A stretch of DNA of 64,000 nucleotides, taken from NCBI GenBank assembly GCA_046328505.1, contig JAXLWL010000004.1, forward strand, positions 9,559 through 73,558. Reading direction: 5' to 3'. The stretch's first letter is position 1, and each line of letters opens with the position of its first letter. Position numbers and translations under genes: made by a program. The stretch comes from Anaerolineae bacterium (GTDB taxonomy: Bacteria > Chloroflexota > Anaerolineae > Epilineales > JAHCIE01). The notes under the pieces are model-generated. The model was not told where the DNA came from. It worked only from the letters and a program-made list of their open reading frames with translations, and searched no databases. Positions 16,372 through 58,210 of this stretch are shown one piece after another.

Positions 16372-16373
16372 GC

Positions 16374-21280: not shown

Positions 21281-22040
21281 GACGCCTCTCGTTGCATCAA
21301 ACACACAATACATTCACCTTTCCAAAGTATACGCGATTTGCTTTATGCACGGTAAAAGTTACTGCCGCGCATCGTGATCAACAGCCGTAAATACGTCGGA
21401 TGGCTAGGTTCCGCTTGAGGGCGAACGCATGTTGCCTGACGCATTGCTTTGAACATAGGTGACGATGCAGCAAATCAACAAGCAGGACGATCGGATGGAG
21501 TGACATGCGAGTCCAGTAGAGGTGCGAATCAATACGCTACGTGGAGGGAGCGCCATGTCCGATAGCCTCGCCCTCTCTGCTACTGTCCTTGATCGTGTTC
21601 ATACAATCAACTCTCCCGAAGACCTACACCGCCAGAAGGTTTTCACCTCAATCGTCGTCGGCATACTGTTGGAGCAGACCATCAGCATGCCTCAAGATAG
21701 TAGAGCGGTGAACCGGCGGTCTGCAGGCTCAGACGTTAGCTGATCTCGATGACTGTAACCGTGCTCTTCCCCTCACCACGAAATCCGCCACACTTCAACG
21801 AAATTCCCGTCGACGCGTTACCATTTGCCCCCCTTGTGCGTCTACTTATTGTAACTATATACTGTTTTCGCTACTCCGATCATCCTGCCGACGTTTCGTC
21901 GCGCGCCTCGTCCTCCGGCGATCAGCGCATTCTTACCCTCATCATCGCCTCGCTGATTTGCGCCCTGCTGTTCTCGGCTGACACGCCCAGGCTCTTCCGC
22001 CGTCTCGACCCCCGTCGGGACTGCCCTCCAGGAGGTCACC

Positions 22041-24162: not shown

Positions 24163-25393
24163 CCGCCTGCTCAGTGACACGCAGTGGCTGACGCCCAGCG
24201 CCGCCGACGAGGCGCGCATCCGCGCCCTCATCCACGAGCACGTCGTCGCCTACCAGCGCCGCGCCGCTACGGCTAACACCGGCCCTCCTCTTCAACCCCG
24301 AGGCGGTCGAGCAGCATCTCTTCGATGGCCTGCTGCGCATGGGCATCCTCCAGCCGCTCATGGACGCGCCGAGCGTCGAGGAGATCATCTGCAACGGCCC
24401 GCAGCGCATCTTCGTCATCGAGGACGGGCAGAAGCGTCTCATGAGCGACCTGTTCTTCGACGACGACGAGGAGCTGCGGCAGCTCGTCAAGCGCCTGGTC
24501 GGGCCCCTGGGCCGCCGCCTGGACGAGTCCGCTCATGGTGGATGCGAGGCTGCTCAACGGGGCGCGGCTCAACGCCGCCATCCCGCCGGGCGACGACCCG
24601 CTGGTGCTGCCTCACCATCCGCAAGTTCACCTTGCGCGCCCACTCCCTGGAGCAGCTCGTCGAGTTGCGAACGCTGCCCGAGCACGGCGGCGCAGTTCCT
24701 GGACGCCGCGGTGCAGGCGGGCGTCAACATCCTCGTCAGCGGAGCAACCGGCGCCGGCAAAACGACGATGCTCAACGCGCTGGGCGCCTCCATCGCGTCG
24801 CTGGACGAGCGCGTCGTGACGATTGAGGAAGTGGCTGAATTGCAGCTCGACCGCCAGCTCCCCGACTGCGTCTCTCTACAGGCGCGAGCGCGAGCAACGT
24901 CGAAGGCGTGGGCGAGATCCGCATCCGTGACCTGGTCAAGAACGCCCTGCGTATGCGGCCGACGCGGATCATCGTCGGGGGAGTGCGCGGCGCGGAGGCG
25001 CTGGACATGCTGCTGGCCATGAACACCGGCCACGAAGGCTCCCTCGCCACCATCCATGGCAACTCGCCCCGCGACGCCCTGGACCGGCTGGTGACCCTGG
25101 CGATGATGGCTGAGGAGCGGCTGTCCAACGAGGCCCTCACGAAGATGGTGGCGCGCACCATTGAGCTGGTGCTCCAGGTGCGCTTCGAGCCGCGGACGGG
25201 CCAGCGGCGGCTGGTGAGCATCTTCGAGGTGACGGGGCTGGAAGGCGAGGTGATCACCGGCAACGACATCTGGGCGCTGGACGAGAAGAGCGGCCGCCTC
25301 GTCTGGACCGGCATCCAGCCGCGCTGCCTGACCAAGCTGGCCGCGCGGGGTATCCCGTATACCTTCGCGCCGACGCGCGGGCCGTCCGACTGA
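24065..25393 (+). pseudogene. cpaF: cpaF/tadA (Flp pilus assembly ATPase, VirB11/GspE family) disrupted by about five +/-1 frameshifts
   Basis: CpaF-like sequence is readable only by switching frames near 24270, 24530, 24605, 24680 and 24885. Examples: MATSLSQ...EARIRALIHEHVVAYQRRAA / LFNPEAVEQHLFDGLLRMGILQPLMDAPSVEEIICNGPQRIFV / MVDARLLNGARLNAAIPPGDDPLVL / TIRKFTLRAHSLEQLVELRTLPEH / [33 protein letters not shown]...[10 protein letters not shown] / [52 protein letters not shown]. Walker A and the His box are present but lie in different frames. Confidence 0.75.
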
Positions 25394-25730
25394 CACTTTC
25401 CTGCTACTTTCCCGGTTGCGTGTCCAGGAAAGTGGCAGGAAAGTCAGGAAAGCCCGCATTGGAGCCTCACTTTCCCGGCAGCGCGTCCAGGAAAGTGGCG
25501 GGAAAGCCGGAGAAACACACCTTGGAGCATCACTTTCCCGGCAGCGGGTCCGGGAAAGTGATGGGAAAGCAGGAAAAGCACGCGTTGGAGCTCCACTTTC
25601 CCGGCAGCGGGTCCGGGAAAGTGGCAGGAAAGTCGGGGCAGAGCAGTTTGCCGTCGATGCAACCGCCAAGTTCGCTCCACTTTCCCAACTCGTGGTCCGG
25701 GAAAGTGGCAGGAAAGCGCCGGGAAAGTGG
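25394..25730. repeat. five tandem copies (period 63 bp, one of 84) of a unit containing an 11-bp-arm palindrome CACTTTCCCGG-N8-CCGGGAAAGTG
   Basis: Palindromic cores at about 25405-25432 (variant), 25468-25497, 25531-25560, 25594-25623 and 25678-25707, with an extra half-site GGGAAAGTGG at 25721-25730. Each core is followed by a conserved GCAGGAAAG..TTGGAGC segment. Intergenic between cpaF and tadB. Confidence 0.85.
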
Positions 25731-25766
25731 CGTCTGGTACACTAGGGACAGGAGGGTGGGTTCAGC

Positions 25767-26624
25767 ATGATACCAATTCTACTCTCAGTTGGTTTAGGGT
25801 TGGCCGTCTTCTTCGTCTACGACGGGCTGACGCGCCCACCTACGCCCCAGGTGGAGACGCGAGAACGAACGCGGCTCGACGGGTTCCTGCTGCGGGCCGG
25901 TCTGCCGGATGTCAAGCCCCGCGAGTTCGCCTTGTTCTCTCTGGCCTGCAGCTTGGCCACCGCCATCGTCAGCCAGATCCTCCTGGGCTGGGGCATCGTC
26001 AGCCTGCTGGCCCTCCTGTTCGGCCTGGCGGCGCCCCTCGCCTACTACGCCCACCGCCACGATAGCCGCCGCGCTCAGGTCCAGGCCGCCCTGGTCGAGG
26101 CCATCGCCCAGCTCCGCGATGCCATCCGCAGCGGCCTCTCGGTTCAGGAGGCGCTGGTCGGTCTGGCGCGCGTCGGGCCAGAGGCGCTGCGGCCTGAGTT
26201 CGTCACGCTCGTCCGGGATATGCAACTCGACGGTGGTGAAGCGGGGCTGGTCGCCATGCGCGACCGCCTCGCCGACCCGCTGTTCGACATCGTCGCCGCC
26301 ACCCTCATCCTCAACGACCGGCTCGGTGGCCGCAACGTCAGCCAGGTGCTCGACGAGCTGGCCGAGACGACGCGGGCGCAGCTGCGCGTCCAGGATGAGC
26401 TGCGCGCTCACCAGGCTCAGACAGTGCTGTCCGCCCGAGTTGTGGCCGTCATGCCCCTGATCGTGCTGATCATCATTCGCCAGATGAACCCGCGCTACCT
26501 GGCCATCTTCAACGACTGGTCGGGCCAGGTCATCCTAGCGCTGTGCGTCCTGAGCATCGCCATCGGCTACGGGGCCATGCTCTGGATCACGCGCCTGCCG
26601 GCCGAGCGCCGCATCTTGAGGTGA
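25767..26624 (+). CDS. tadB: Flp pilus assembly inner-membrane protein TadB (T2SS-F domain)
   Basis: 285 aa with an N-terminal TM segment, a cytoplasmic helical domain and C-terminal TM segments. Position and architecture fit TadB. Confidence 0.75.
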   Translation: MIPILLSVGLGLAVFFVYDGLTRPPTPQVETRERTRLDGFLLRAGLPDVKPREFALFSLACSLATAIVSQILLGWGIVSLLALLFGLAAPLAYYAHRHDSRRAQVQAALVEAIAQLRDAIRSGLSVQEALVGLARVGPEALRPEFVTLVRDMQLDGGEAGLVAMRDRLADPLFDIVAATLILNDRLGGRNVSQVLDELAETTRAQLRVQDELRAHQAQTVLSARVVAVMPLIVLIIIRQMNPRYLAIFNDWSGQVILALCVLSIAIGYGAMLWITRLPAERRILR

Positions 26625-26628
26625 CGCC

Positions 26629-27603
26629 ATGCCTTTCCATTTCCACCTGTCGAGTCCGCCCGTCGCCGTCATTCTCTTGCCCCTCCTCTTCAGCCTGGGC
26701 GCCTACCTCATCCTCATGGCGCAGCCCATCGGTCGGCCGCGGCCTGACTTGAAAGAACGCCTGCGCCGCCTGGACGTGGACGAGAGGATGCGCGAGCAGA
26801 TGAGCCAGCCCATCCGCCGCCCCATCTTCGCCTCGCGCTGGCTGGAGGCCATCCTGCGACCTATCCTCGACGACGTCGGGCGGCTCGTGCGCTCGGTGCT
26901 GAGCCTATTCGGGCTCGGCGGCGGACGCCGGTTGGAGCGCAAGCTGCACATCGCGCGGCCCGAGGTCGAGATCTCCCAGTTCTTCGGCGAGAAGCTCGCC
27001 GCCGGGCTGATCGGCCTGGCGATCTTCCCGGTCATGAATGCCCTGGGCCTCCAGCCGTTCGGGACGTGGCCGACCTGGCTGTGGGGTGTCGGCTTCCTGG
27101 TCGGCTTTCTCAGCCCCGATTGGGACCTGGAGCGGCGGCTGGCCGAGCGGCGCATCGACGTCCTGATGGAGTTGCCGACCGTGCTGGACATGCTCACCAT
27201 CGCGACATCGGCAGGGCTGGCCCTGGAGCAAGCCCTCATCCTCGTCGCGCGGGAGAGCCAGGGCCTCGTCGCCCAGGAGCTGCAGCACGTAGTGCGCGAG
27301 ATGGCGCTGGGTCAGCGTTCCCTCGACGGCGCCCTGTCCGACATGGCCGAACGCAACGATGTGCCGCAACTGACGACCTTCGCCAACCACGTGCGCGCCG
27401 CCTACCAGCAGGGGACGCCTCTCATCCAGACACTGCGAACCCAGGCGGTGAGCCTGCGGGAGCAGAAGCGACTGCGGATTGTGGAAGAAGGGGGGAAGGC
27501 GAGTGTCAGGATGCTCTTCCCCGTGGCCCTCTTCATATTACCGGTCCTCTTCGTCGTACTCCTGCTGCCGGCGGTCTTCGAGCTGCTCAAGCTCGGGCGA
27601 TAG
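26629..27603 (+). CDS. tadC: Flp pilus assembly inner-membrane protein TadC (T2SS-F domain)
   Basis: 324 aa paralogous architecture immediately after tadB. Confidence 0.75.
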   Translation: MPFHFHLSSPPVAVILLPLLFSLGAYLILMAQPIGRPRPDLKERLRRLDVDERMREQMSQPIRRPIFASRWLEAILRPILDDVGRLVRSVLSLFGLGGGRRLERKLHIARPEVEISQFFGEKLAAGLIGLAIFPVMNALGLQPFGTWPTWLWGVGFLVGFLSPDWDLERRLAERRIDVLMELPTVLDMLTIATSAGLALEQALILVARESQGLVAQELQHVVREMALGQRSLDGALSDMAERNDVPQLTTFANHVRAAYQQGTPLIQTLRTQAVSLREQKRLRIVEEGGKASVRMLFPVALFILPVLFVVLLLPAVFELLKLGR

Positions 27604-30309: not shown

Positions 30310-31408
30310 GCATCTCTTTCCATCACTGGTTCTCGCTTTGCTCGTAACCGCTTTTCTTTCTACCTCCGTTCATGCCGACGGGCCAAACCCCGACCGGCCG
30401 CAGCCGCATGTCAATCGCGATCATCTGAACGTTCAGACCCGTGTCGAGAGCCGCCGCGACGGAGTCTATGTTGAGATTTCCGTCCAACAGTCAACGCCAG
30501 GGGAAGACCGGCCGAGTCCGCATGCGCGTGCTACCGATGAACCCTCGAACAACACTGCATCTGCAACGACTGCTACAAGTTCGGCTCAGCCGGTGAGCAC
30601 GGGACCGCAGGAGCGCTACTGGAGCAACAACACCGGGATCTACCGCGAGACGGTAGACGGTCACGTAATCCAGCTCACGCCGCCACCTATTGGCACAGCC
30701 AGCCTGAGCGCCTGGGACACCGCGCGGGCTAACCACCCCGACCAGACGCCGTATCTCCTGTACGTGGACGACCAGTACAACGGCGTCGTCTGGATCCCCC
30801 AGTCGCCCCAGAACGGCAACGTTCGCATCGAGGCGATGCCCTCCGCCCAGCCCTCGCGTCCCTCAGGTGATGACAACAGCACGGACGCGCGCGAAGTCGC
30901 CCTCAGCGCCCTGGGCCACGTGCGCCTCCCCGACATGCACGTCCGCGTGAACCCGTCCCTTGGCCTCGTCAACCTGCCGGGCTGGTTTTGGGTCGACGGC
31001 TACGACGGTCGCCCCTTCGGCGTCAGCCGCACCGTCCATGTCCCGCCCGAGATTGGCGACGATGTCCCCGATACCGTCGTCCCTGCCGACGACCCCCGTC
31101 GGCGCGGCACGAGTTTCACCGTCAGCGTGCGGATCTGGCCGAGCCAGTATGAGTGGAACTTCGGCGACGATCACATCCTGGTGACCGACTCCCTGGGCAA
31201 GCCCCACCCTGCCGAGTCCGACATCCAGCATACCTACGAGACCTCTTCCCTGGGTTTTGCCAACGGCTTCCCCGTTCGGCTGAGCGTCACCTTCCACGCC
31301 GAGTACCGCGTCAACGGTGGCCCGGCTGAGGCGCTGCCCTCGATCACCCAGGTGGTCGAGTACGGCTACCGCGTGCAGGAAGCGCAATCGGTTCTCACCG
31401 GTCATTGA
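30302..31408 (+). CDS. secreted hypothetical protein (tad-locus accessory)
   Basis: Signal peptide [25 protein letters not shown]. No recognisable domain. Confidence 0.45.
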
Positions 31409-31428
31409 GTGGGAGCGAGGAGGAAGTC

Positions 31429-34400
31429 ATGCAGACGACCTACGTAGACATGGACGAGCAGCGGCGCGACCGTGTGAGCCTCCTGGGGCTGATTGTCGGC
31501 CTGGTGGGCGTGGGCGTCTTCCTCTATAAGGTGCCCGGCCCGCCCCACTTGCCCGCGACGTGGCCGACGTGGGCTGGCATCGTCACGACCCTGCAGGGCA
31601 GCTATCTCCCCCTGGATGGCGTCATCTACGTGCTCATGATGCTCGCCTGGCTGCTCTGGGCCTGGCTGGCTTTCTCGCTTGTCCTGGAGCTGATTGTCGT
31701 AACCGTCGAGAAAGTCTCACAGGGCGCGGCGTGGGCGCGAAGCCTACGCGCTGCGGCTGACCATGTCACAGCGCCCATCGTGCGCCGCGTGGTGCAGGGC
31801 GCCGTCGTGGCAACCGTCGTGGTCAACCTCGTGGGCCGGTCGGGGACGCCGGCGAACGCCGCACCTATGGAGACAACCCCGATTGTGCTCCAGCAGCGGG
31901 CGCCAACAGATGCTGCGCCTCCGGTGGTCGAGCAAGAGGCCGAGCACAATCCGCGCGTCGTCGAGTACACGGTGCAGTCGGGCGACAGCCTGTGGGCCAT
32001 CGCCGAGCGCTTCTACGGCGACGGCGACGCCTATCCCCGCGTCGTCGCGGCCAACGTCGGCCGCGCCATGCCGAACAATGGGCGCTTCACGCCGGCCGGC
32101 GTCATCCACCCTGGCTGGGTGCTGGTCATCCCGCTCCCCGACGAGGCGCCGGCCGAGCACAGGCAGCGGACCACCTACGTCGTGGCAAAAGGGGATACAT
32201 TGTGGGGCATTGCCGGGAGGTTCTTGGGCGACCCGACCCGCTGGCCGGAAATCTTCGAGCTGAACCGCGGCGTTGCCCGCCATCCCCAGACGGGCTGGAC
32301 GCTCACGAACCCTAACCTCATCTGGCCGGGCCTGCCCCTCCAGATACCTGTCGAGGCGCCATCTGAGCAGCCCGCGCCCCTGCCCCCGGCTCCTGTTGTC
32401 GAGCATCCAGTGGAGACCTCGCCAGTTCCCGGCCTCCAACCTGGTACGATTACAACGGCAACGCCTCGGCCCGCAGAGCCTAAGCAAGTCGTCGTCGAAA
32501 CGCCCGTGGCAACACCGGTTCCCGTCGCCACGCCCTCGCCGGTCGTGCACGAGCAGGCTCTACCGCCTATAGTGTGGGGGGCAGTGGGGCTGATGGTCGC
32601 CGCCGGCATCGCTGGCCTGGCCTTGCGGCGTCGGGTGCGGCGCAGCGTGGCCGAGTCGCTGGCCCCCGACCCGGCGGAGGTCATGCCGCCCCACGGCGAC
32701 TTCGTCGACGCCGAGTTCGCGCGCCTGCTGCGCCACCGGCTGCAGAATGGCGAGGTCGAGGCGGCCGTTCTGGTTGCCGAGCAGACGCTGCGCTTCCTAC
32801 GCGATGAGGGCATAGAGGGAGTCTCCCTCATCATGGCCGGCCAGGGCGCCAAGTCAGTCAACCTGATTCTGTCCACGAGCTTACAAGACAAGGAGCGTAT
32901 TATCGCCTTGGCGCCTAAGATGGGCGCGCGCCTCGGCGGAACGGTCAAGGCGGAGACGACGTGCGACGACGATATCGCCCTCGAGGTATCGGAGCCCAAG
33001 CTCGCCGATGTCGCGTCTGCCTCTAAGCGCGCCCACGAGTTGCCCCGCCTTGTCGCCGTCGGGCTCTTGCCTCAGCAGACCACAACCTACATCAACTGGC
33101 CGAAGGCGGGTCATGTCCTTATCGCGGGGACCCCAGGCGGCGGGACGGACATAACGCTCACTAGCCTCATGTGCGCGTTGGCGACCCGCTATCACCCGGA
33201 CGCTCTCCGGCTGTACACCGTTGCCAGCCGCCGCGCCCTGCCACACCAGCTGTTCGATCTGCCACACGGGGTTGAGATCGCCGATTCGTCCGACGCAAGA
33301 GGCGTGCAGGGAATCCTGGAGCAGGTGGAGGCCGAGCTTGTTCGACGCATGAAAGCCGCCGCCGAAGGAGAAGCGACCCGGGAGCCAGAGATTGTGATTG
33401 TGCTGGGCGAGCTCGCCGACGTAGAGGACATTGCAGCGGTGGACATGATCGGAACGCACGGCACGGCGCATGGTATCCAGCTTCTTGCCGCCACAAGCCG
33501 CGTGGACGAGATCCCCGACGGGACGTTGGCGCTCTTCTCCACGCCGCTGGTTCTGCGACTACTCGACGACGAGACCAGCATTCGCGTCTTGGACGACAGC
33601 GCTGCCGCCGACCTGGGGCGCGGTGACATGTTCCTGTCCCTGGACAGCCGCTGGCCGATCCAGATGCGCGGCCTGCGCGTCTCACCGGAGCACCTGGATC
33701 AGCTGGTTACAGTGATGCGTGAGGCCTATGGGGAGCCGACACCGGCCCCATCCCTGGCAACCGCCGACGAGAACGACGCCGAGATAGTTGCCGACGGCGA
33801 GGAGCTTTCCGTGCAGTCGCCGAACGGGCACGCGCCAGCGGCTGTACCGGCCAAACCAGTCGAGGCTAAGCCCGACCTTCCGGTGGACGCGAGCGCAGCG
33901 GAAAACGACCTTGTTGAGCCTGTCACACTAGCGCTCCCGGCGCTTAACGGCCACACGCCACCGATACCCCTGCCGAGCGACGCCTCAGACGCGCCGCCTG
34001 AGGTCGACGGGGTTGAGGAGGAGCCGCCGGTGTTCATCCAGTGCTTCGGCAGCCTGGTCGTCCGATACGCGGGGAAGACCCTGCAGGCCAGGGCAGAAGG
34101 GCGCGCCATCCTCAAGTCGTGGGAGGTGATCGCCTACTTGGCGTGCTATCCACCCGAGGGCGTGACCGTGGATCGGCTAATCGCCGATGTCTGGCCCGAC
34201 ACTGACGGCGCTGACAAGAACGTGCTGCACATCGCGATGTACCGAGCACGCAAGGCACTGCAAGAGCAAGTCGAGAGTGTCAGCGACGACGTCATTCGCC
34301 TGGACCGCGATGGGACGTGTCTCCTCGACCGCGCGTTGGCCACGTCGGATGTCCACCAGTTCATGGCGCTCGTCTCGCGGGCACAAAGGCTTCCGTCTGC

Positions 34401-34854
34401 CCAAGCCAGGGCCGCATTGGAAAGAGCGCGGGACCTGTACCAGGGGGACCTGCTCTCCAGCCCTCAGGCGCGAACGTTCCACTGGCTTGACAATCGCGGG
34501 GCGAGCGGGTTGACGCTTCGCGAGACCTACCGCATCGAGTACCAGCGAGCCATGTGCCAGTTGGCGGGGCTCTACCGCGAAGACGGCGAGTTCCAGCGGG
34601 CTCAGGCGCTGCTGAAGGGCATGCTGCAGCAGGAGCCAACGCTCGAAGATGTCGTGCGCGAGCTGTATCGTCTCTACGCGCAGATGGGCGACCTGGCCGG
34701 GTTACGGCGGGAAGACCGTCGCCTGCGTCTGGCGCTGCAGTCCGCCTACTACGACCCGAACAACCCCGACGACGACCCCGGCCTCTACTCGCCCGAAGCC
34801 GAGACCGTCGCGCTATATAATGAGATACACAGGGCCCTGAACCCGATAAGCTAG
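31429..34854 (+). CDS. giant multidomain protein: N-terminal TM helices, two LysM domains, Pro-rich linker, TM helix, FtsK/SpoIIIE-like P-loop domain with degenerate Walker A, C-terminal BTAD (SARP-type transcriptional activator) domain
   Basis: LysM domains [20 protein letters not shown]... and [20 protein letters not shown].... FtsK-like [27 protein letters not shown] (no Walker Lys) and [12 protein letters not shown] (Walker B-like). BTAD-like [25 protein letters not shown]...[10 protein letters not shown]. Start at the ATG at 31429 with GAGGAGGA upstream. Confidence 0.6.
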
Positions 34855-35024: not shown

Positions 35025-38000
35025 ATGGACCTGGAAGGGTGGAAGCAAGCGACGAGAGAGCGGCTGCACGGAATGGCGGAGATCCTCCGGCGCAAGACAC
35101 CGGGCGCGGTGTACGGAGGGCTATCCGCAGCGGCTATACTGCCCATTATCAGCGCGCTAAACCAGGGCGACCTCATGGCGGTCCTGGCGTTTGGAAGTCT
35201 CCTCGGCAGTGTTGGCGCTGGCCTCATCACCAACCAGATTCAAGCGTGGAAGGACAAGAGCGACACGGAGTTGGCCGAGGAGCTGACGCAGAAGGCCGAA
35301 ACCGACGCCAAGTGGCGCGAGGCGCTGGACAAACTGATGCAGGAATTGGAGACACCGCGCCTTGCCCAGGAGACTCTCGCCCCCGGCGGCCGCGCCTGGC
35401 TCGCCGAGGCTCTCAACCAGGAGCTGACGCGTCTGGGTAGCAGCGTTCGCGTCCAAGGCAACGGGAACGTCGTCGCTGCAGGCAACATATCGGATAGCGT
35501 CATCAATTCGGGCCGCGTCGAAGCGCGCGAGGGTAGTGTCGTCATCATAGCGCAGCAGGTCTCGCGCGATATAGTGGCGAGCCTCAAGCCGGAAGGTCTG
35601 TCTGCGAGCGAACTCCAGGCCATCACCGAGCCCTACCTCAAGTACCTCATCACCCGCTACCGCTACCTCGACTTCAAGGGTATGGGCATGGCAGACCGCG
35701 TCCCATTGCGCCTCCCGATTGAAGATATGTACATTCCTCTTCGCGCACGCGTCGAGATACCACGATGGGAGCGGTCAGGTTGGCAGGACTTTGAGGCTTT
35801 GTCGGATCGTGAAGCGCAGTTGCTTGGAAGCCTGGAAACACCGGAGGAATCAAGATACACTACGGAGCGCTTCGGTGGATCCCCATGGCTCCTCGATCTT
35901 CTGGGGCGCCACGACGGTCTAGTCATCGTTGGTGACCCTGGGGCGGGCAAGACGACCTTCCTCAAGCATCTGACACTCTCCTTGGCGCTAGGTCATGGCG
36001 AAAGAGTTGGCTTAGCTAATCGTCTGCCCGTCCTAGTCCCGCTCTCGGCCTACGCTAGGGCTCTCGAGCTAGAGGACGTTGCTCTCCAGGAGTTCCTGGG
36101 GACGTATTACCGTAACCAGGGTACTGACCTATCGATTGACGCCCTCCTTGCGGCAGCGCTGTCCGACGGGCGCGCCCTGGTCATGTTTGATGGCCTCGAC
36201 GAGGTCCAGGAGATTACGCGCCGCGGTCTGGTACTGGAACGAGTGACCGCCTTCTACGCGCTGCACCGCCAACGCGGCAACAAGTTCATCCTCACTAGCC
36301 GAATCGTGGGCTACAAAGACGTGCGCCTGACGGCCGAAGGGCTCGAAGAGTGTACGCTGGTCGACTTCGACGAACGGGACATCCGCGAATTCATCAATAA
36401 GTGGACGTGTGCTGTGGAACAGGCGATCCACGGTCCGAGCGCATTTAGTCTCCGGCAGGCCGAGATCGAGGGGAATGAGCTGCTTGACGCTATTGCGCGC
36501 AATCCAGGTGTCCGCCAACTCGCTGCTAACCCCCTCCTGCTTACCATTCTGGCCCTCATGAAGCGCCAGGGTGTTGCCTTGCCCGAGCGCCGGGTCGAGC
36601 TATACGACAAGTACGTCGAGACGCTACTGCGCCATTGGAACCTGGCGCGGGGGTTGGACCGACGCGCAGCGCGGGACCTGGACGTGGTAGAGACGCTAAG
36701 AGTCATAGCGCCGCTTGCATTGTGGATGCAAGCGACAAGTCCAGGGCGTGGATTGGTTAAGCAAGCCGATCTACAGCGCCAGCTGATTGCCATCTACAGT
36801 GAGCGCGGGGAAGCAGACCCGGAGCGCGCTGCACGTCAGTTTCAGCACGACGTTCGCGACCACGCCGGGCTGCTGCTGGAGCGTGGTCCACGTGAGTACG
36901 GCTTCATCCACCTGACGTTCCAGGAGTATCTGGCTGCGGTGGCTATTGCTCAACATGGGCAGGTGGACGTGGCTCCAGTAGTGCGTACTCTGGCTGCGCA
37001 TATGGATGATGCCAGCTGGCGCGAAGCTGTACTCCTGACTATCGGCTATCTTGGTCTCATACAGCAAAGGGACGAAGCTGCGGGCGATGTGCTGCAGCAG
37101 CTTGTAGCTAGCCCTGAAGCTTCGCCTGCAGCTGTCGTATTAGCAGGTGAGGCGGCAGTTGATGCCGGACCAGGCGGAGTGTCAGTAAGCGGGCGTCAGG
37201 CAGTGGCTGGGGCGCTTCTGGCCGTCATGCGTGATGACGAGCATGCAGACGCTCTAACGCGAGCTGCGGCAGGTGATGCCCTGGCGAAGCTCGGCGATCC
37301 GCGATTCCGTGCCAACGCGTGGTTCCTGCCCGACGAGCCGCTACTGGGCTTCGTCAAGATTCCATCGGGTGGACTCACAATGGTCGAAGGCAGTACCGAG
37401 AACGTTGTCGATGTCCCTACGTTCTTCATTGGCCGCTACCCGGTAACGGTGGCCCAATTTGAGGCATACGTGGACGCGTCCGGCCAAACCCCCGTGAACA
37501 AACAGAGCCTTCGCGATCCCGTTAACCGTCCGGTGCGCTATATCAGCTGGAGCGAGGCGATGAATTACTGCCGCTGGTTGGCGGGAACGTTGCGGGTGTG
37601 GGCCGACACGCCACAGCCACTAGCCGATTGGCTGCGCGGGACCGGCGAGCGACCGCCCGGACGTATCACACTGCCGAGCGAAGCGGAATGGGAGAAGGCA
37701 GCGCGAGGAACGGCTGAACATACGTATCCCTGGGGCGAGCAGCCCAACCCAAATCGAGCTAACTACCGTGACACAAAGATTGGTGACACAAGTTCGGTCG
37801 GCTGTTTTCCTAGTGGTGCCAGTCCATACGGTATTGAGGAGATGGCTGGGAATGTTTGGGAGTGGACGCGCAGTATTCTAAAGAATTACCCTTATGACCC
37901 GAAAGACGGGCGTGAGGACGAAGCGATAGAAGGGAATCGCGTGGTGCGCGGGGGAGCGTTCATTGATAATGCCACCAGCTTGCGCTGCTCATTCCGCGGC

Positions 38001-38063
38001 AGGTATAGTCCCTTCTATGGAGGCAACGATCAGGGGTTTCGGGTCGTATTTTCCAATCTCTGA
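35025..38063 (+). CDS. STAND NTPase: N-terminal ~145-aa helical domain, G/N-rich strand motif, NACHT domain, C-terminal FGE-sulfatase (SUMF1-like) domain
   Basis: Walker A LVIVGDPGAGKTTFLKHL, Walker B LVMFDGLDEV. FGE-sulfatase signature RYPVTVAQFEAYV...LPSEAEWEKAARG...SPYGIEEMAGNVWEWT...VVRGGAF...GFRVV. Shared motif VQGNGNVVAAGNISDSVINSGRVEA at 35448-35531. Confidence 0.85.
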   Translation: MDLEGWKQATRERLHGMAEILRRKTPGAVYGGLSAAAILPIISALNQGDLMAVLAFGSLLGSVGAGLITNQIQAWKDKSDTELAEELTQKAETDAKWREALDKLMQELETPRLAQETLAPGGRAWLAEALNQELTRLGSSVRVQGNGNVVAAGNISDSVINSGRVEAREGSVVIIAQQVSRDIVASLKPEGLSASELQAITEPYLKYLITRYRYLDFKGMGMADRVPLRLPIEDMYIPLRARVEIPRWERSGWQDFEALSDREAQLLGSLETPEESRYTTERFGGSPWLLDLLGRHDGLVIVGDPGAGKTTFLKHLTLSLALGHGERVGLANRLPVLVPLSAYARALELEDVALQEFLGTYYRNQGTDLSIDALLAAALSDGRALVMFDGLDEVQEITRRGLVLERVTAFYALHRQRGNKFILTSRIVGYKDVRLTAEGLEECTLVDFDERDIREFINKWTCAVEQAIHGPSAFSLRQAEIEGNELLDAIARNPGVRQLAANPLLLTILALMKRQGVALPERRVELYDKYVETLLRHWNLARGLDRRAARDLDVVETLRVIAPLALWMQATSPGRGLVKQADLQRQLIAIYSERGEADPERAARQFQHDVRDHAGLLLERGPREYGFIHLTFQEYLAAVAIAQHGQVDVAPVVRTLAAHMDDASWREAVLLTIGYLGLIQQRDEAAGDVLQQLVASPEASPAAVVLAGEAAVDAGPGGVSVSGRQAVAGALLAVMRDDEHADALTRAAAGDALAKLGDPRFRANAWFLPDEPLLGFVKIPSGGLTMVEGSTENVVDVPTFFIGRYPVTVAQFEAYVDASGQTPVNKQSLRDPVNRPVRYISWSEAMNYCRWLAGTLRVWADTPQPLADWLRGTGERPPGRITLPSEAEWEKAARGTAEHTYPWGEQPNPNRANYRDTKIGDTSSVGCFPSGASPYGIEEMAGNVWEWTRSILKNYPYDPKDGREDEAIEGNRVVRGGAFIDNATSLRCSFRGRYSPFYGGNDQGFRVVFSNL

Positions 38064-38256: not shown

Positions 38257-41200
38257 ATGGACCTAAACACTTGGAAACAAGCTGCGCGTGACCGCCTTGT
38301 CGCGATCCGTGACGCGTTTCGCGGCCGCGCTCCGGGTACGTTGTACGGCGCTCTCTCAGCAGCTGCAATACTGCCCGTCGTTGCTGCTGTGAACCAGGGT
38401 GACTTTGCCGCGCTAGTGGCGCTCACTGGTGTTGTCGGCGGCGTGGGCGGCAACCTGATTGCGAACCAGATCCAGGCGTGGAAGGACAAGAGCGAGGCGG
38501 AGATTGCCGCGAACCTGACCGAGAAGGCCCAGGCGGACGACCAGTGGCGCGAGGCGCTGGACACGCTCATCGAGAAGCTCGACGTAGTGGCGGCAGTCGA
38601 AGTCGGGCTGAGCCAGGCCGACCAGCAGTGGTTCCAGGAGACGTTGCAGGCCGAAGTCGAGCGCCTGGGCAGCCGCGTCACAGTTAACGTGAAGGGCAAC
38701 CGCAATGTGGCGCCCGCTGGTGATATTCGCGAAAGCACGATTTTCACCGGCGACAATGCGACCTACATCGAGCGGCTCGACATCCGCTCGGCGGTCTTCC
38801 ATACGCCTCCGCAGCCTGGGCATGTCGATCCCAAAGAGCTACTGTGGACATATCTCAACCAGGTCATCAGCGACACTGGAGCCCTTGACTTGTCCGGCGT
38901 CGACAAGCGCACTGCTAGCGACCCTGAAGCAGCCCGCCTCGAGTTAGCTGCCGTGTACACTGCTCTAGATACGCTCCGACTTGAGGAACGACGGAGAACC
39001 CTGTCTTCCCAAACAGTGGAACAGATGGAACTGCCTTTCTTGTCAGAGCGCCAGTCGGTTCTTGCCTTTGTAAATGACGCGAAGTACGCAGCCCTCCTGG
39101 GTGACCCCGGCTCTGGCAAGACGACGTTTGCCAACTTTTTGGCGCTGTGTCTGGCGGGCGAAATTCTTGGCGAGGACCGCGCTAACCTGGCGCGTCTTGG
39201 GGACGCGTGGAAGCAGGACGCCCTCCTGCCCGTTCGCGTCGTTCTACGCCAGTTCGCCGCCCATCTCCCTGCGCCGCCTGACGCGAGCGCCAGCCTGCTG
39301 TGGGACTATATCATCCGCCGCCTAGGTCCGGGCCTGGACGGCTTCGCGCCTTTGCTGCGGAAGCACCTTGTCCAGCACGGCGGCCTGCTCATCCTCGACG
39401 GCCTGGACGAGGTGCCTGAGGCCCACCACCGCCGCGAGATCGTCAAAGGGGCCGTTCTCGACTTCAAGCGCCAGTTCCCGAAGGTTCGCATCCTGCTGAC
39501 CAGCCGCACCTATGCCTACCAGAACCGGCTATGGCGGCTGCCCGGCTTCGACGAGGCCGTCCTGGCGCCGTTCACGCCGGAGCAGGTTGACCTGTTCGTG
39601 AACAACTGGTACGCCCACATGGCCCAGGTGCGGCCCAACCTGTCGTCCGACGAGGCCCAGGGTCGCGCCGAGCGCCTCAAGGAGACCATCCACCGCGAGA
39701 GCCATCTGGCCGAGCTGGCCGAGCGCCCGCTACTGCTCACTCTCATGGCGTCCCTCCACGCCTGGCGTGGCGGCGCCCTGCCGGAGGACCGCGAGCAGCT
39801 CTACGACGAGAGCGTCGAGCTGCTGCTGGACGTGTGGGAGCGGCCCAAGGAGGTGGTGGACAGCGAGGGCAGCACGATCCTCCAGACGGAGAGCCTGGCC
39901 GAGTGGCTACGCGCACCCCAGGCGGACGTGCGTCAGGCGCTGGAGGCGCTGGCCTTCCGCGCCCACCGCGACCAGCCTCAACGAACCGGCGCGGCCGACA
40001 TCGGCGAAGACGCCCTGGCCGGGGCGCTGCTCAAAGTGGCGAAAGGCCGCGACCTCACCCTCGACCGCATCATTGACTATATCCTCGACCGCACCGGGCT
40101 GCTGGTCAATCTCGGCGAGGGCATCTACAGCTTTCCCCACCGCACGTTCCAGGAGTACCTGGCCGCTCGCCACCTGAGCGAGACCGACTTCCCGGGCCGG
40201 CTGGTCGAGCTGGTGCGGGCGGACCCGGAGCGCTGGCGCGAGGTGATGCTGCTGGCCGGGGCCAAGGTCAAGCGGGGGACGCCGTTCGCGGCGTGGGCGC
40301 TTGTGGATGCCCTGTGCTTCGGCGAGTGCGGCGACGGCGCCGGCGACGCCGACTGGTACGCCGCGCTGCTCGCCGGTCAGCTCCTGGTCGAGACCGGCAT
40401 GCACAAGGCGGCGGGGACGCCGGCCACGGCGGCGAAGGTGGCGCGGGTGCGCGGCTGGCTGACGAGGCTGGTGAGGGAGGGGCATCTGCCGCCGGTGGAC
40501 CGCGCTGCCGCAGGGCGCGCGCTGGGCTGGCTCGGGGACGAGCGGCCGGGCGTCAGTATCATTGTCCGCAATGGCGCGCAAATACCCGATATCGATTGGA
40601 TCGCGATTGAGCCGGGGCCGTTCATCATGGGGAACGATCATCCGCTGGCCGACTGGGCCAAACATATGGAAACGCCCCAGTTCACCTGCCAACTCATCAC
40701 ACGGCCCTATCGTATCAGCCGTTATCCGGTGACAGTGATGCAATATCAGGCATTCGTGGACGCTGACGGGTACCAGAACGCGCAGTATTGGTCCCTTGCA
40801 GAAGCAGCAGGTGTCTGGCGAGACAAACACACACTTCGCCGTGTACCATATCTGGTGGAGGATAGGATTGAATGGAAAGAGGAGTGGGCTGACCAGCCCT
40901 TAAGCTATGGTGTGCTATACTCCGCGCCCAATCAACCTCGGGTTGGAGTCACTTGGTACGAGGCGGCTGCGTTCTGCGCCTGGCTGAGTGAGGTTCTCGG
41001 CAAGCAGGTGCGACTGCCCACGGAAGCGGAGTGGGAGCGAGCGGCACGCCACACCGACGGGCGTGCCTATCCTTGGGGGAACGACTTCAACCCGCAACGT
41101 TGCAACATGGGTGATACGGGAATCGGTGCGCCGTCAACAGTGGGGATTTTCCCGAACGGCGCTTCAGCGTGCGGGGTACATGACATGGCCGGCAACGTGT

Positions 41201-41439
41201 GGGAATGGTGCAGCACGAAGTGGCTGGATAGCTATGACAGCTACGAAACGCGGGTCGATGATAGCATGACAGGAAGCGAAGACCGCGTGGTGCGTGGGAG
41301 CGCGTTCGACCTTCGTGGGGAATTCGTGGAATGTGCATTCCGCCTTGGGATTAGTTCAGTCGGTAGGAGCAGCAATCAGGGGTTTCGGGTGGTGTCCCCA
41401 GCCTCTGACTCTCTGGCCTCTGAATCCTCTGACCTCTGA
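38257..41439 (+). CDS. STAND NTPase paralogue: N-terminal ~145-aa domain, G/N-rich strand motif, NACHT domain, C-terminal FGE-sulfatase domain
   Basis: Walker A LLGDPGSGKTTFANFL, Walker B LLILDGLDEV. FGE signature RYPVTVMQYQAFV...LPTEAEWERAARH...GVHDMAGNVWEWCSTKW...VVRGSAF...GFRVV. N-terminus MDLNTWKQAARDRL... is paralogous to MDLEGWKQATRERL... of the preceding gene. Shared motif VKGNRNVAPAGDIRESTIFTGDNATYI at 38692-38766. Confidence 0.85.
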   Translation: MDLNTWKQAARDRLVAIRDAFRGRAPGTLYGALSAAAILPVVAAVNQGDFAALVALTGVVGGVGGNLIANQIQAWKDKSEAEIAANLTEKAQADDQWREALDTLIEKLDVVAAVEVGLSQADQQWFQETLQAEVERLGSRVTVNVKGNRNVAPAGDIRESTIFTGDNATYIERLDIRSAVFHTPPQPGHVDPKELLWTYLNQVISDTGALDLSGVDKRTASDPEAARLELAAVYTALDTLRLEERRRTLSSQTVEQMELPFLSERQSVLAFVNDAKYAALLGDPGSGKTTFANFLALCLAGEILGEDRANLARLGDAWKQDALLPVRVVLRQFAAHLPAPPDASASLLWDYIIRRLGPGLDGFAPLLRKHLVQHGGLLILDGLDEVPEAHHRREIVKGAVLDFKRQFPKVRILLTSRTYAYQNRLWRLPGFDEAVLAPFTPEQVDLFVNNWYAHMAQVRPNLSSDEAQGRAERLKETIHRESHLAELAERPLLLTLMASLHAWRGGALPEDREQLYDESVELLLDVWERPKEVVDSEGSTILQTESLAEWLRAPQADVRQALEALAFRAHRDQPQRTGAADIGEDALAGALLKVAKGRDLTLDRIIDYILDRTGLLVNLGEGIYSFPHRTFQEYLAARHLSETDFPGRLVELVRADPERWREVMLLAGAKVKRGTPFAAWALVDALCFGECGDGAGDADWYAALLAGQLLVETGMHKAAGTPATAAKVARVRGWLTRLVREGHLPPVDRAAAGRALGWLGDERPGVSIIVRNGAQIPDIDWIAIEPGPFIMGNDHPLADWAKHMETPQFTCQLITRPYRISRYPVTVMQYQAFVDADGYQNAQYWSLAEAAGVWRDKHTLRRVPYLVEDRIEWKEEWADQPLSYGVLYSAPNQPRVGVTWYEAAAFCAWLSEVLGKQVRLPTEAEWERAARHTDGRAYPWGNDFNPQRCNMGDTGIGAPSTVGIFPNGASACGVHDMAGNVWEWCSTKWLDSYDSYETRVDDSMTGSEDRVVRGSAFDLRGEFVECAFRLGISSVGRSSNQGFRVVSPASDSLASESSDL

Positions 41440-41504: not shown

Positions 41505-42494
41505 ATGATGGCCAACACATTTGACCATGGCTACGCACTGCTCATCGGCGTCGGAACGTGCGCCTACACCGCCTGGTCGCTGCCGGTGACGGTCAAGGAC
41601 ATGGGGGCGCTGCGCGGCGTCCTGGCCGACCCAACGCTGTGCGCCTACCCCGACGACGCCGACCACCTGCGCCTGCTCCACGACGCCGGCGCGACCCGCG
41701 CCGACATCCTCGACGGCCTGGCCTGGCTTGCCGAGCGCACTGCGGCCGACCCCGATGCCACCGCCATCGTCTACTACTCGGGCCACGGATTGGTGGACAA
41801 GGCCAGCAGCTGCTACTACCTTATCCCCCACGACGTGCAGCCCTTCGACATTCCCGGCTCGGCCCTGCCCACCGACGACTTCCACGCCGCGCTGCGCAAA
41901 GTCAATGCGCGGCGCCTGCTCGTCGTCATTGATGCCTGCCACGCCGAGGGCATGGCGACAGCGAAGGATCAGCCTGCCTTCGCGCTGCCGAAGGGCTTCG
42001 AGCAGGAAGCGCCATCGAAGGGGCTGGTGGACGCGCTGAAGGAAGGCGAGGGCCGCGCCGTGTTCACCTCGTCGCGGGGAACGCAGAGTTCGTGGATTCG
42101 GCCTGACGGCGCGATGAGCATCTACACGTACCATCTCATCGAAGCGCTGCACGGCGCGGCGGCTCAACTCGGTGACACGACTGTGACGGTGGGCCAGCTC
42201 CAGCACCACCTGGGTCGAACGGTTCCCGAGAGCGCCCGCGCAATGTGGAAGCAAGAGCAGACGCCCTTCTTCGACACGGCGACCGAGGACTTCCCCGTGG
42301 CACTGCTGCGCGGCGGCAAGGGGCTGCCGGCCGGCGGATGGCAGGCGGTGGAACCGTCGACCGCGCCGCGTCCGCGGACATCCATCAAGGCAAAGGGCAA
42401 CCGCAATGTCGTGTCCGGCGGCGACATGCGCGGCAACGTCATCGTCACGGGCGACAACGCCAACATCCGGAGGGGAGATGACCAGGATGAGTGA
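41505..42494 (+). CDS. caspase-like (peptidase C14/CHAT-type) protease with C-terminal G/N-rich motif shared with the upstream NACHT proteins
   Basis: Catalytic dyad context IVYYSGHG and LLVVIDACHAEG. C-terminal tail KAKGNRNVVSGGDMRGNVIVTGDNANIRRGDDQDE (42383-42494). GGGAGA RBS then ATGATG. Confidence 0.8.
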   Translation: MMANTFDHGYALLIGVGTCAYTAWSLPVTVKDMGALRGVLADPTLCAYPDDADHLRLLHDAGATRADILDGLAWLAERTAADPDATAIVYYSGHGLVDKASSCYYLIPHDVQPFDIPGSALPTDDFHAALRKVNARRLLVVIDACHAEGMATAKDQPAFALPKGFEQEAPSKGLVDALKEGEGRAVFTSSRGTQSSWIRPDGAMSIYTYHLIEALHGAAAQLGDTTVTVGQLQHHLGRTVPESARAMWKQEQTPFFDTATEDFPVALLRGGKGLPAGGWQAVEPSTAPRPRTSIKAKGNRNVVSGGDMRGNVIVTGDNANIRRGDDQDE

Positions 42495-42896: not shown

Positions 42897-45186
42897 ATGA
42901 ACGAGCAAAGGCGCGAGTTCGGACTTCTTCTCACGCAAGGGCTGAAGAGTATCGCCGCCCGTCAACACAAGGGTCTGGGCGTCCTGGAGGATGAGCTCGG
43001 CTACGAACTCGGCGTCACCGGCTGGGCGATCCAGGGTTGGCGCCAGGATCGCATCCCGCCCCACCCTGGCCAGGTTTGCTCTTCTAGCCCGCAGATGTGT
43101 ACAGCAGGGAGGCATGGATCGCCAGTGGCTCCTCCGTTTCCTCACGCTGAGCCAGTACCCTGAGAAAGATGGATTGCTGGCTGAGTTATGTCCTGGAGAG
43201 GCTGAGCCGCGAGGGGCTGCGCACCATAACCTCCCCGGCCGTCCATACGAATCCTTCATCGGGCGAGAGAAGGAACTGGCAGACCTTGTGCCTATCCTTG
43301 CCCGCGAGCATCGTATCGGGGTCGTCTGCATTAGTGGGATCGGTGGCGTAGGCAAGACGGCGTTGGCCCAGGAAGTTGCCCACCGCTTCTGCACTGCGAC
43401 CTCGAAACTGCCCTCGGCCGACCGCTTTGAGGCTATCGTCTGGGTCACCGCCAAGCGGACGGAGCTTCTGGCACGAGGTCTCACGCAACGGCAGCCCACG
43501 TTTAGCGACCTCGACGGTGTTTACCGCGCCATCGCCGATGTCCTGGATTTGCCGGCGGTCATGCGCGCCGCGACGCGCGAAGAGCAAGAGCTTCTCGTGA
43601 CTCGCGTGCTCGGCGAACATCGGGTTCTCCTGGTGCTAGATAACCTGGAAGACGTGGATGACCCGGCTCTGATGGTATTCTTGCGCGATCTTCCCACTCC
43701 CAGCAAGGCCGTCGTCACCACCCGCCACCGCATCGACGTCGCAGCGCCGATCCATCTCCGCGCTTTGAACGAAAGCGATGCGCAAAAGCTCATTGCGTCG
43801 GAGTGCCAGCGCCATAATCTACAACTGACGAATGACGAATGCGACAAGCTGCTCCGCCGGACCGGCGGCCTGCCGCTGGCGATTGTGCGCACCATCGGTC
43901 GGATGGCCTGGCGCGGCAGCAGCATCGAGATGGAGCTGCGTCAACTTGGAGCGCCCACCTCCGAAATCTATCAGTTCTGCTTCGATAAGAGCATCGCTCT
44001 CATTCAGGGCAGCGATGCTCATCGTCTATTCATGGCCCTCGCTCTCTTCGCGGCTGACGCCAGTCGAACCGCCATCGGCGAGGTCGCCGGCTTGAATGGA
44101 GATACGTTGAGCCGCGACGAAGGATTGAGTGATCTCGACGTGCTTTCGCTGGTCAACAAGAGTGCTGACCGCTTCAGCCTGGACCCGCTGACAAAGGTCC
44201 GGGCACAGGCAGAACTCAGGGCGAATCCCGCTTTTGAGGAGTCAGCCCGCGAGCGCTTCCAGGATTTCTACACGCAGTTCGCTTTCGACACGTGTGGCGA
44301 AACGTACTGGGGAAGCTATCTTCGGCAGGAGCGCTATGACGAAGTTGAGCGAGAGTTCGAGAACATCCTGGCTGTGTTTTCCTATGCTCGCGAGGCGGAA
44401 GACAACCTGACGATCGTGCGCTTGTTCAGCTCGATTGTTCACTTCATGGCTCGCCGCAACCGGTGGCCGGAGCGTCTGTCCTGGGTCCATCCCGCCATCG
44501 CGGCAGCCCAACGGCTAGAGGATGTTGCGTCGGAGGTCTGGTTTCGAATTGATGCCCTGGGCTGGATGCTACTCCAGCAAGGACGGACTGAAGAAGCCCT
44601 CGAGCAGTTGAATCTCGTGGAGAAGCTTGTCCCCAGGCTTGATGTTGAAACAGCTTACGATGCGACGATCTTCGTCCATTGTTACCGGAGTCGAGCAGCA
44701 CGGCGGCGAGGTGATCTGGACGAAGCGTATCGAGCGCTCCAGCCGGTATTTGACCAACCATGCCATCCTTTTGCGAGCCGTCACCTGCTCACTTACCTGG
44801 GCGAGCTGCTGTACTACCGGGGAGAATACGCGCAGGCGCGCAAGGTTCTTGCCGAAGCCGCGGCGATCTGCGATGAGATCGGCGACGATTCGGGGCGCGC
44901 CATTGTTCTCAACACCCTCGGCCTCACGTTAGTGCAGCAGACGGCGTATGCCGAGGCCGAGCCAGTCCTCGACGAAGTACTCGCATTCGAAACGAGTCTC
45001 GGCCGCGTTCATGGAATCGCGCGCGCACAGCAGGGCCTCGCGATGCTGGCCTGGGCGCGTGGCGATCGCGCGAAGGCTCTTGAGCTGGGCCGCCGGTCCA
45101 GCGCCGGTTTTGCCCGCCTTGGCATGCGACAGGAAGAGGCCGAGGTCGCCAACCTTATAGCCGACTGGGGCAACGAGATCCATTAA
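42897..45186 (+). CDS. STAND NTPase: N-terminal HTH, NB-ARC ATPase, TPR repeats; N-terminal region carries a -1 frameshift near 43074-43078
   Basis: HTH MNEQRREFGLLLTQGLKSIAARQHKGLGVLEDELGYELGVTGWAIQGWRQDRIPPHPGQV (frame 0) continues as LLARRCVQQGGMDRQWLLRFL (frame +1), colinear with the intact paralogue at 58607. Walker A GVVCISGIGGVGKTALAQEV, Walker B VLLVLDNLED. C-terminal TPR-like repeats. Confidence 0.7.
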
Positions 45187-45297
45187 CTCTCTTCCCTAAC
45201 AGCTGCATGTTTCTTGACAGAGCGTAACCGTCTCCCACCCTCAGCGTTCTAATTAGTACACCTTGTGGACAGCAATGCGGCTGGAGGGAGAGAGGGA

Positions 45298-48900
<3,603 letters not shown>

Positions 48901-58171: not shown

Positions 58172-58210
58172 CCCGTTCCTCGCCGATGGATATCGTGAGT
58201 GTGCGGCGGG

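Follow-up and report, generated by a model that had tools for sequence, protein, structure and literature searches.

Two neighboring genes in a 64,000-nt stretch of contig JAXLWL010000004.1 from an Anaerolineae bacterium (the window) encode large proteins of the nucleotide-oligomerization-domain (NOD)-like receptor (NLR) type, here called NLR1 and NLR2, and the locus raises the question of what the roughly 140-residue N-terminal domain that they share (the N-domain) does. The genomic context gives good support to an effector role, and sequence comparison makes it probable that the N-domain is the effector module of these and other NLR-like signal transduction ATPases with numerous domains (STAND proteins). 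The fuller proposal, that it is a non-enzymatic cell-death effector whose action includes the membrane and which is controlled by amyloid-like NLR signaling, is one toward which we lean only slightly; the toxicity of the domain, its insertion into membranes and the amyloid nature of the motif that follows it are what we infer.

Tandem NLR genes and the family of their N-domain

NLR1 and NLR2 are tandem open reading frames (ORFs) on the same strand, and a gene for a caspase-like protease lies downstream of them. Their features, with the support for each from translation, AlphaFold2 (AF2) models, hidden Markov models (HMMs) and Pfam, are as follows.

35025..38063, + strand: NLR1 ORF, ATG start, 1012 aa
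35025..35444, + strand: NLR1 N-terminal all-alpha domain, aa 1–140 (translation, AF2, family HMM match)
35454..35522, + strand: NLR1 Gly/Asn/Val-rich motif QGNGNVVAAGNISDSVINSGRVE, aa 144–166, inside a linker disordered in the AF2 model
35919..36404, + strand: NLR1 NACHT NTPase, aa 299–460, Walker A GDPGAGKTT (Pfam PF05729, E 6.7e-10)
37395..38048, + strand: NLR1 C-terminal FGE-sulfatase domain (C-type-lectin fold), putative sensor (Pfam PF03781, E 6e-45)
38257..41439, + strand: NLR2 ORF, 1060 aa
38257..38670, + strand: NLR2 N-terminal all-alpha domain, aa 1–138, paralog of the NLR1 domain (translation, BLASTP/identity, nucleotide repeat D1 71%, family HMM)
38692..38760, + strand: NLR2 motif KGNRNVAPAGDIRESTIFTGDNA, aa 146–168, 15/23 identical to the caspase tail
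39088..39615, + strand: NLR2 NACHT NTPase, from aa ~278 (Pfam PF05729, E 1.6e-10)
40594..41394, + strand: NLR2 FGE-sulfatase domain, putative sensor (Pfam PF03781, E 4.6e-48)
41505..42494, + strand: caspase-like protease, Peptidase_C14 (Pfam PF00656, E 8.8e-18), 65 nt downstream of NLR2
42393..42461, + strand: caspase C-terminal tail motif KGNRNVVSGGDMRGNVIVTGDNA, matching the internal NLR2 motif

A purine-rich stretch (GGGGGGAAGG) precedes the ATG of NLR1. Both proteins have the same layout, in which an N-terminus without a Pfam match is followed by NACHT, a helical or HEAT-like region and the FGE-sulfatase domain, and both translations contain Walker A (GDPGAGKTT or GDPGSGKTT) and Walker B (DGLDEV) motifs. 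The NACHT (PF05729) and FGE-sulfatase (PF03781) matches place both among STAND proteins with the same core as the STAND-FGS systems (Kaur et al. 2021, PMC8195603), where the N-terminal position is likewise the slot for effector-associated domains (EADs) or effectors; the N-domain is not among the EADs or effectors listed there. NLR1 is deposited at NCBI as MFN8473873.1, annotated solely as 'SUMF1/EgtB/PvdO family nonheme iron enzyme [Anaerolineae bacterium]'.

The initial annotation of this stretch had proposed a paralogous N-terminal domain in the two NACHT proteins, followed by a shared Gly/Asn motif and then by NACHT. The ORFs and the N-terminal sequences that it quoted are exact, and the order is as described, with the motif at aa 144–166 of NLR1 and 146–168 of NLR2 and about 120 residues between it and NACHT, which begins at aa ~299 and ~278, respectively, according to Pfam. 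The similarity of the two N-termini is likewise real, although the figure of about 60% identity over some 110 residues has to be lowered to 55% (60/110); identity is 50% over aa 1–145 and 36% over the remainder of the proteins. Because third-codon-position identity between the N-domains is only 46% (nucleotide identity 61–71%), the comparison indicates that they are old paralogs kept similar by purifying selection, and not the products of recent duplication or gene conversion.

The same domain recurs far beyond this locus. An exhaustive search with an HMM built from three sequences (aa 1–167), with counts given as representatives of clusters at 50% identity, retrieved 522 representatives at E<=1e-3, 345 at E<=1e-10 and 32 at E<=1e-30, and the likeness of the NLR1 and NLR2 domains is therefore far beyond chance. 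The match begins at protein residue 1–10 in nearly all of the 150 family members listed (of 522). Protein searches based on a word index missed almost the whole family, returning one match with NLR1 as query and ten with an alignment as query, and a profile scan of genome contigs with a narrow alignment found four Caldilineae loci; the taxonomic range of the family is poorly sampled. A tblastn search of plasmid sequences gave no match. Relatives with a named source come from Anaerolineae, Caldilineaceae/Caldilineales, 'Chloroflexi' and Candidatus Entotheonella, most members being known from metagenomes only; these few named sources, filamentous Chloroflexota and Ca. Entotheonella, are bacteria of filamentous or multicellular habit.

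The N-domain has no match in Pfam, NCBIfam, PADLOC or PDB. A sequence-profile search of PDB returned nothing at E<=10, a Pfam scan of 51 aligned sequences (49 family members together with NLR1 and NLR2) found no consistent family over the domain at E<=1, and we found no description of it in the literature searched on NLR effectors, amyloid signaling and sensors diversified by diversity-generating retroelements (DGRs). In the 51-sequence alignment Y30 and P40 are invariant, and W6, A44, G48, G64, L67, D102 and L118 are nearly so. We therefore propose an identity and a testable role for a large domain family (at least 522 clusters at 50% identity) that has hitherto been unannotated, its proteins being labeled merely 'SUMF1/EgtB/PvdO family nonheme iron enzyme' or 'formylglycine-generating enzyme'.

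Among 43 full-length members, NACHT is found in 40 and FGE-sulfatase in 36, while two have NB-ARC with TPR, one WD40 and one HEAT repeats. Because the domain is fused to differing NTPases and sensors in these proteins, their sequences identify it as a mobile module at the N-terminus of STAND proteins. An all-in-one chain of effector, motif and NLR, which had been expected to be unusual, is the common form within this family (43/43 full-length members). One member, P0001, is a frameshifted ortholog of NLR2 on a metagenome contig, and the gene upstream of it is NLR1-like; the tandem pair is therefore conserved. P0001, P0131, P0155 and P0145 were also considered as stand-alone forms of the domain and rejected, since all four are pieces of NLRs broken by frameshifts, on contigs of low coverage or from long reads.

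Three other members (P0039, P0052 and P0129) share a C-terminal domain with no Pfam match, apparently strand-rich (IEFDITVFAEDM, IKVEYYYRRHWL), after the N-domain and a Gly-rich region. In P0150 the place of that domain is taken by a hydrophobic segment together with a Thr/Pro-rich region, and in P0146 an AAA_35 ATPase precedes the N-domain.

Motif pairs within loci

The region behind the N-domain has a distinctive composition. Over the 40 residues that follow the domain in 151 members, Gly is enriched 2.35-fold, Ile 2.1-fold and Asn and Val 1.8-fold each, and Leu (0.38-fold), Pro (0.39-fold) and Lys (0.81-fold) are depleted, which is the composition of bacterial and fungal amyloid signaling sequences (BASS and FASS; G, N, Q, V and I enriched, K, P and L depleted). 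A G/N/V/I-type bias has been reported both for BASS motifs and for beta-helical proteins (bioRxiv 10.1101/2020.01.06.895854), and the Gly-rich region of three family members gives weak matches to YadA_head, a beta-roll. In the AF2 monomer model of NLR1 the motif region (aa 147–168) is a disordered linker, with a per-residue confidence (pLDDT) of 37–43, which agrees with an amyloid-type motif but is not diagnostic of one.

The position of the motif sets this family apart. In BASS NLRs the motif is at the extreme N-terminus, whereas in NLR1, NLR2 and most members of the present family it is internal (aa ~144–168), and the N-domain is usually fused in cis to the NLR, in an effector–motif–NOD order. 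The paper on bacterial amyloid signaling that we consulted describes two kinds of NLR, those with an effector domain built in and those with a motif at the N-terminus, and this three-part arrangement was not found in it. The wiring thus places a signaling motif inside the receptor, and the same motif is borne by a caspase-like protease.

That protease is encoded directly after NLR2 and likely starts at MMANTF, judging from its ortholog at locus L008, in a Caldilineales metagenome-assembled genome. The ~35 residues at its C-terminal end (KAKGNRNVVSGGDMRGNVIVTGDNANIRRGDDQDE) agree with the NLR2 motif (VNVKGNRNVAPAGDIRESTIFTGDNA) at 15 of 23 positions, with an ungapped score of 78 (shuffled motifs gave a best-in-window null of 29.6±3.8), a Smith-Waterman (SW) score of 87 (z=13.7) and 74% identity over 68 nt of DNA. 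The NLR1 motif matches the caspase tail more weakly (SW 55, z=6.3) and also resembles the NLR2 motif, again more weakly than the caspase tail does. In a cross-locus matrix the caspase tail of the window scored 87 and 55 against the two NLRs of the window and at most 33 against NLRs elsewhere. At L008 the caspase gene lies directly upstream of an N-domain NLR, and its tail (HGSGAIAQDHSVAAGAGGIAIG) matches the internal motif of that NLR (KGSGSAAVDHSAAAGAFGIAING; z=8.6). Because the L008 pair carries a motif different from that of the window and still matches internally, the motif co-varies within loci; the z values of four cognate within-locus pairs range from 8.6 to 15.5.

The N-domain also occurs in stand-alone proteins of 180–220 aa, which consist of the domain and a C-terminal motif. 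In three independent records of an Anaerolineae genome (L015, L016 and L017), a gene for a 203-aa protein of this kind lies 168 nt upstream of the gene for a 931-aa NACHT-FGE NLR, and the N-terminus of this NLR comprises a helical leader of ~55 aa followed by a segment (GDVRGDLVTGTKTTAFDQRGQ) that matches the tail of the 203-aa protein (GNVHGDVVTGQRTTLFDQRGQ; SW 89, z=12.7). The flanking genes are housekeeping genes, and the 203-aa protein is therefore the only candidate effector in this system. At L019 the gene order is DGR reverse transcriptase (RT), Avd, NLR-A, a 219-aa N-domain protein and NLR-B, and both NLRs carry parts of the tail motif of the 219-aa protein in their N-termini, after a helical leader of ~55 aa. 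At L013/L014 (Ca. Entotheonella palauensis) an all-in-one NLR, apparently frameshifted, is followed by a stand-alone 184-aa N-domain protein whose tail matches the NLR motif (SW 106, z=15.5). L015–L017, L019 and L013 thus have the genomic syntax of HET-S and Bell systems, in which a domain with a C-terminal motif adjoins a motif-matched NLR.

Further members are joined to EADs, pairs of which are a device for coupling effectors to NTPases (Kaur et al., PMC7159879, PMC8195603). P0148 has the order N-domain, motif, EAD7 (E 3.4e-22), and at L018 a gene encoding N-domain, motif and EAD11 is followed by a gene encoding EAD11 and iSTAND; in P0148, P0153 and P0200 the EAD7/EAD11 matches sit C-terminal to the N-domain. 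The adaptor pairing at L010 is unconfirmed, as the EAD7 match of P0153 reached 23.8 bits against a Pfam cut-off of 32 and the adjacent NACHT protein has no EAD7. The effector position proposed in the initial annotation is thus found in three wirings, namely N-terminal fusions to NACHT or NB-ARC, stand-alone domains with a motif beside matching NLRs, and EAD7/EAD11 fusions, and because of these three wirings we conclude that the N-domain sits where an effector sits.

Relatives of the N-domain NLRs are linked to DGRs at L005, L011/L012 and L019 (RVT_1 with an IGNLTSQ motif, and bAvd). They recall the DGR-diversified antigen sensors of Doré et al. (2024, PMC10907252), in whose literature such regions are called uncharacterized N-terminal extensions. 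The window differs from these loci: in its 64 kb, tblastn searches for the RT and Avd of L019 and blastn searches with the C-terminal regions of the two NLRs found neither RT nor Avd nor a template repeat for the FGE-sulfatase 3' end, although a DGR outside the window might act on these genes.

Structure, membrane propensity and candidate roles of the N-domain

The AF2 model of the N-domain, built on the 51-sequence alignment, has a mean pLDDT of 84.3, block means of 86–96 over aa 1–140, values above 90 for most of this stretch and a predicted template-modeling score (pTM) of 0.78. It contains seven helices (3–23, 29–46, 50–75, 80–93, 95–108, 110–116 and 120–137), and the same helices appear in a model of full-length NLR1 (pLDDT 83.8, pTM 0.75), where helix 3 is broken at aa 61–64 and a pre-NACHT helical region follows the low-confidence motif linker. 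As modeled, the resting domain would be a compact seven-helix bundle in which a hydrophobic hairpin (aa 29–75) is flanked, in sequence, by amphipathic helices. The hydrophobic stretch of about 40 residues that had been read as one long helix is real (aa 27–70), but it forms two helices, 29–46 and 50–75, separated by a conserved N/Q-G-D turn; the acidic helical region described behind it is present at aa 76–137, which are helical and net acidic.

Across the family, conservation is highest in three segments, helix 2 (0.61), helix 5 (0.61) and helix 3 (0.58). Helices 2 and 3 are both uniformly hydrophobic, with mean Eisenberg hydrophobicities of 0.51 and 0.41 and hydrophobic moments of 0.08 and 0.17, and helix 3 has a conserved small-residue pattern of the Gly-zipper type, LGxxxGxVGxNL. 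Amphipathicity is clear in helices 1, 4, 5 and 6 (moment 0.27–0.42) and weaker in helix 7 (0.18); helix 1 is highly polar, 7.8 of every 24 residues being charged family-wide. The residues under strong conservation are for the most part small or hydrophobic and form no obvious catalytic constellation. A Foldseek search with the N-domain model matched no solved structure in PDB (best E 0.95), and the best E value against BFVD was 0.96.

In NLR1 and NLR2, windows 27–45 and 50–68 reach Kyte-Doolittle values of 1.7–2.0, above the classical threshold of 1.6, and Wimley-White octanol values of only -1 to -3.6 kcal/mol, much like an internal NACHT segment. These two proteins lie at the hydrophobic extreme of the N-domain family, and several observations weigh against a toxin that acts on membranes. 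Among 149 members the Kyte-Doolittle means of the two hydrophobic helices are 1.18 and 1.46, both segments reach 1.6 in only 3%, and Hessa-scale sums are +5 to +7 kcal/mol, so that the segments fall below transmembrane level. Because these values are sub-transmembrane across the family, spontaneous or translocon-type insertion of the hairpin is not predicted. The charges flanking the hairpin give a weak positive-inside signal, and the N-domain has no homology to any protein of proven membrane activity. The window already encodes an enzymatic effector, the caspase, and the N-domain might be a scaffold and not a toxin. Since most members lie on metagenome fragments, truncation could account for some of the stand-alone forms; those cited here as evidence lie on long or replicated contigs. 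Insertion of the hairpin conditional on a conformational change is possible.

Comparison with known systems places the N-domain beside, and not within, an established class of effectors. Like Bell, Babybell and HeLo with their BASS or FASS motifs, it is a small all-alpha domain followed by a Gly/Asn/Val-rich motif of ~25 aa that matches an adjacent NLR (L015, L019). The motifs share the composition bias of BASS and the hosts are, as in BASS systems, filamentous or multicellular bacteria; in those systems, too, other effectors (CHAT/caspase, EAD7) bear the same kind of tail (bioRxiv 10.1101/2020.01.06.895854, 10.1101/2024.11.07.622273). Members of this class include HET-S/NWD2 in fungi, Bell-BASS/NLR pairs in Actinobacteria and Cyanobacteria, and Bab/Agp in E. 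coli, the last of which provides experimental proof that motif pairs can drive antiphage cell death. HeLo and Bell domains, however, have four or five helices in 80–110 aa and a hydrophobic, pore-lining helix 1 of the 'MEPIS' type, whereas the N-domain has seven helices in 140 aa, a charged helix 1 and an internal hydrophobic hairpin, and the initial suggestion of a membrane-inserting N-terminal helix as in HeLo and Bell does not hold for it. Kinship to HeLo or Bell finds no support in Pfam (E<=1), PDB profiles or fold comparison; the Pfam result covers aa 1–192 of NLR1 and 1–198 of NLR2, and the presence of a Bell profile in Pfam was unchecked. The N-domain thus resembles the Bell/HeLo and BASS/FASS effectors in genomic slot and is not a member of that class by sequence or fold.

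Two further comparisons concern the hairpin. Bcl-2 and colicin pore formers have the same design in sequence and predicted secondary structure, a hydrophobic helical hairpin with amphipathic helices; there is no sequence similarity and structural scores are below significance, and the likeness is one of architectural analogy only. The SLATT 2TM domains likewise have a two-helix hydrophobic element, are predicted to be non-enzymatic effectors and belong to systems enriched in multicellular bacteria, whereas the N-domain is larger, with five or more extra helices, and its hydrophobicity is sub-transmembrane. No SLATT or EAD family matched aa 1–140 in Pfam at E<=1.

If the N-domain is an effector, the system might work in the following way. 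The FGE-sulfatase sensor, of C-type-lectin fold, would bind an invader ligand, and NACHT oligomerization would gather the motifs into a beta-rich assembly, amyloid-like or beta-solenoid-like. This assembly could cluster or open the N-domains and expose the hairpin for membrane insertion, following the logic of colicins and Bcl-2, and it could template the identical motif on partners, which would be the caspase in this window and free N-domain–motif subunits elsewhere. The mechanism class, amyloid-like NLR signaling, is already known; the executioner-type domain is non-homologous to those described, and the effector–motif–NOD wiring is unusual. Death effectors under amyloid control, the Bell/HeLo class, would with this family gain a second executioner domain that is not homologous to the first; should membrane activity prove true, the family would also be a new pore-forming or membrane-disrupting fold, with L015 as a compact two-gene system for bacterial amyloid-like immune signaling. 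We regard as rather doubtful the extension of this model to a mixed polymer, in which an NLR with its own executioner and an internal prion-like motif would recruit free subunits, a caspase or both. Such a polymer would be a bacterial counterpart of the ASC speck or inflammasome, with a membrane-attacking module and a caspase on one amyloid-like scaffold, and its caspase might also cut the disordered linker and release the N-domain.

The same observations can be read in other ways. The N-domain could be a non-toxic adaptor or scaffold that regulates motif polymerization, as a solubility cap or an oligomerization platform, the recruited partners being the real effectors. Like Death-fold adaptors, the N-domain is non-enzymatic and built of alpha helices only, it always stands directly before the motif, both the window and L008 encode a caspase with a matching tail, and fusion to EAD7 or EAD11 would not be out of place, since adaptor–adaptor fusions occur. 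We nevertheless consider a scaffold somewhat unlikely, as the L015–L017 system consists of an N-domain–motif protein and an NLR alone, with housekeeping flanks and no other effector, and conservation is strongest in the hydrophobic hairpin and not on the surface. The caspase partners, moreover, lack the N-domain, which is therefore not a homotypic adaptor.

Two other alternatives to the effector model turn on the hairpin and on the linker. A permanent two-transmembrane or re-entrant hairpin might hold the NLR at the inner membrane, where it could, for example, sense phage entry; the NLR1 and NLR2 segments both pass the Kyte-Doolittle threshold, a short polar turn lies between them, the flank on the N-terminal side carries positive charge, and transmembrane predictions have been reported for the uncharacterized N-terminal extensions of NACHT-CLec DGR targets (Doré et al. 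2024, PMC10907252). For the family as a whole a constitutive two-transmembrane anchor appears unlikely, because its hydrophobicity is sub-transmembrane, as seen in the 3% of members above threshold and the Hessa sums, and its positive-inside signal is weak. The Wimley-White values are no better than for the internal NACHT segment, AF2 gives a compact globular bundle with high confidence, and the stand-alone and EAD-fused forms suit an effector better; altogether we give an anchor a low probability. By analogy with gasdermins, the N-domain might instead be a pro-toxin, freed when a motif-recruited caspase cleaves the disordered linker, a proposal that overlaps with the effector model. Two loci of differing gene order have a neighboring caspase gene with a matching motif, and a disordered linker does lie between the N-domain and the NACHT module, but most N-domain loci examined (L006, L013, L015 and L019) have no caspase, no cleavage site was identified and the argument is purely one of analogy, which leaves protease release improbable.

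Genomic surroundings in the window

The NLR and caspase genes are followed in the window by further defense-type genes, as listed here.

42991..45186: NB-ARC/TPR STAND protein
45265..48900: SNF2 helicase with NOV_C
55046..58171: DUF1156 protein
58571..60970: NB-ARC/nSTAND1 STAND protein

A scan with the family HMM found no N-domain in the defense-type genes at 42991..48900 and 55046..60970.

Upstream of this island, the window contains two heavy-metal P-type ATPases (HMA with E1-E2_ATPase) at 14284..16407 and 18719..21313 (both -) and a HAMP histidine kinase at 7954..9204, all of which appear unrelated to the N-domain. Genes of the T2SSF type (secretion or pilus platform) and a gene for a CpaE/MinD-like ATPase lie at 22735..27603, and several unannotated ORFs intervene before 31405..34854, directly upstream of NLR1, which encodes a 1149-aa protein with LysM repeats, an FtsK/SpoIIIE ATPase, Trans_reg_C and BTAD/TPR.

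Inside the defense island, a block at 48983..53375 (-) is low in GC content (0.52 versus 0.59–0.69 in adjacent windows). It encodes a thymidylate-synthase-like protein, a 5-hydroxymethyldeoxyuridine (5-hmdU) DNA kinase (HMUDK_hel, E 5e-113) fused to a thymidylate-kinase-like domain, a 266-aa protein without an assigned family and an IrrE/Peptidase_M78 protein. Thymidine-hypermodification gene sets such as this one are usually phage-borne.

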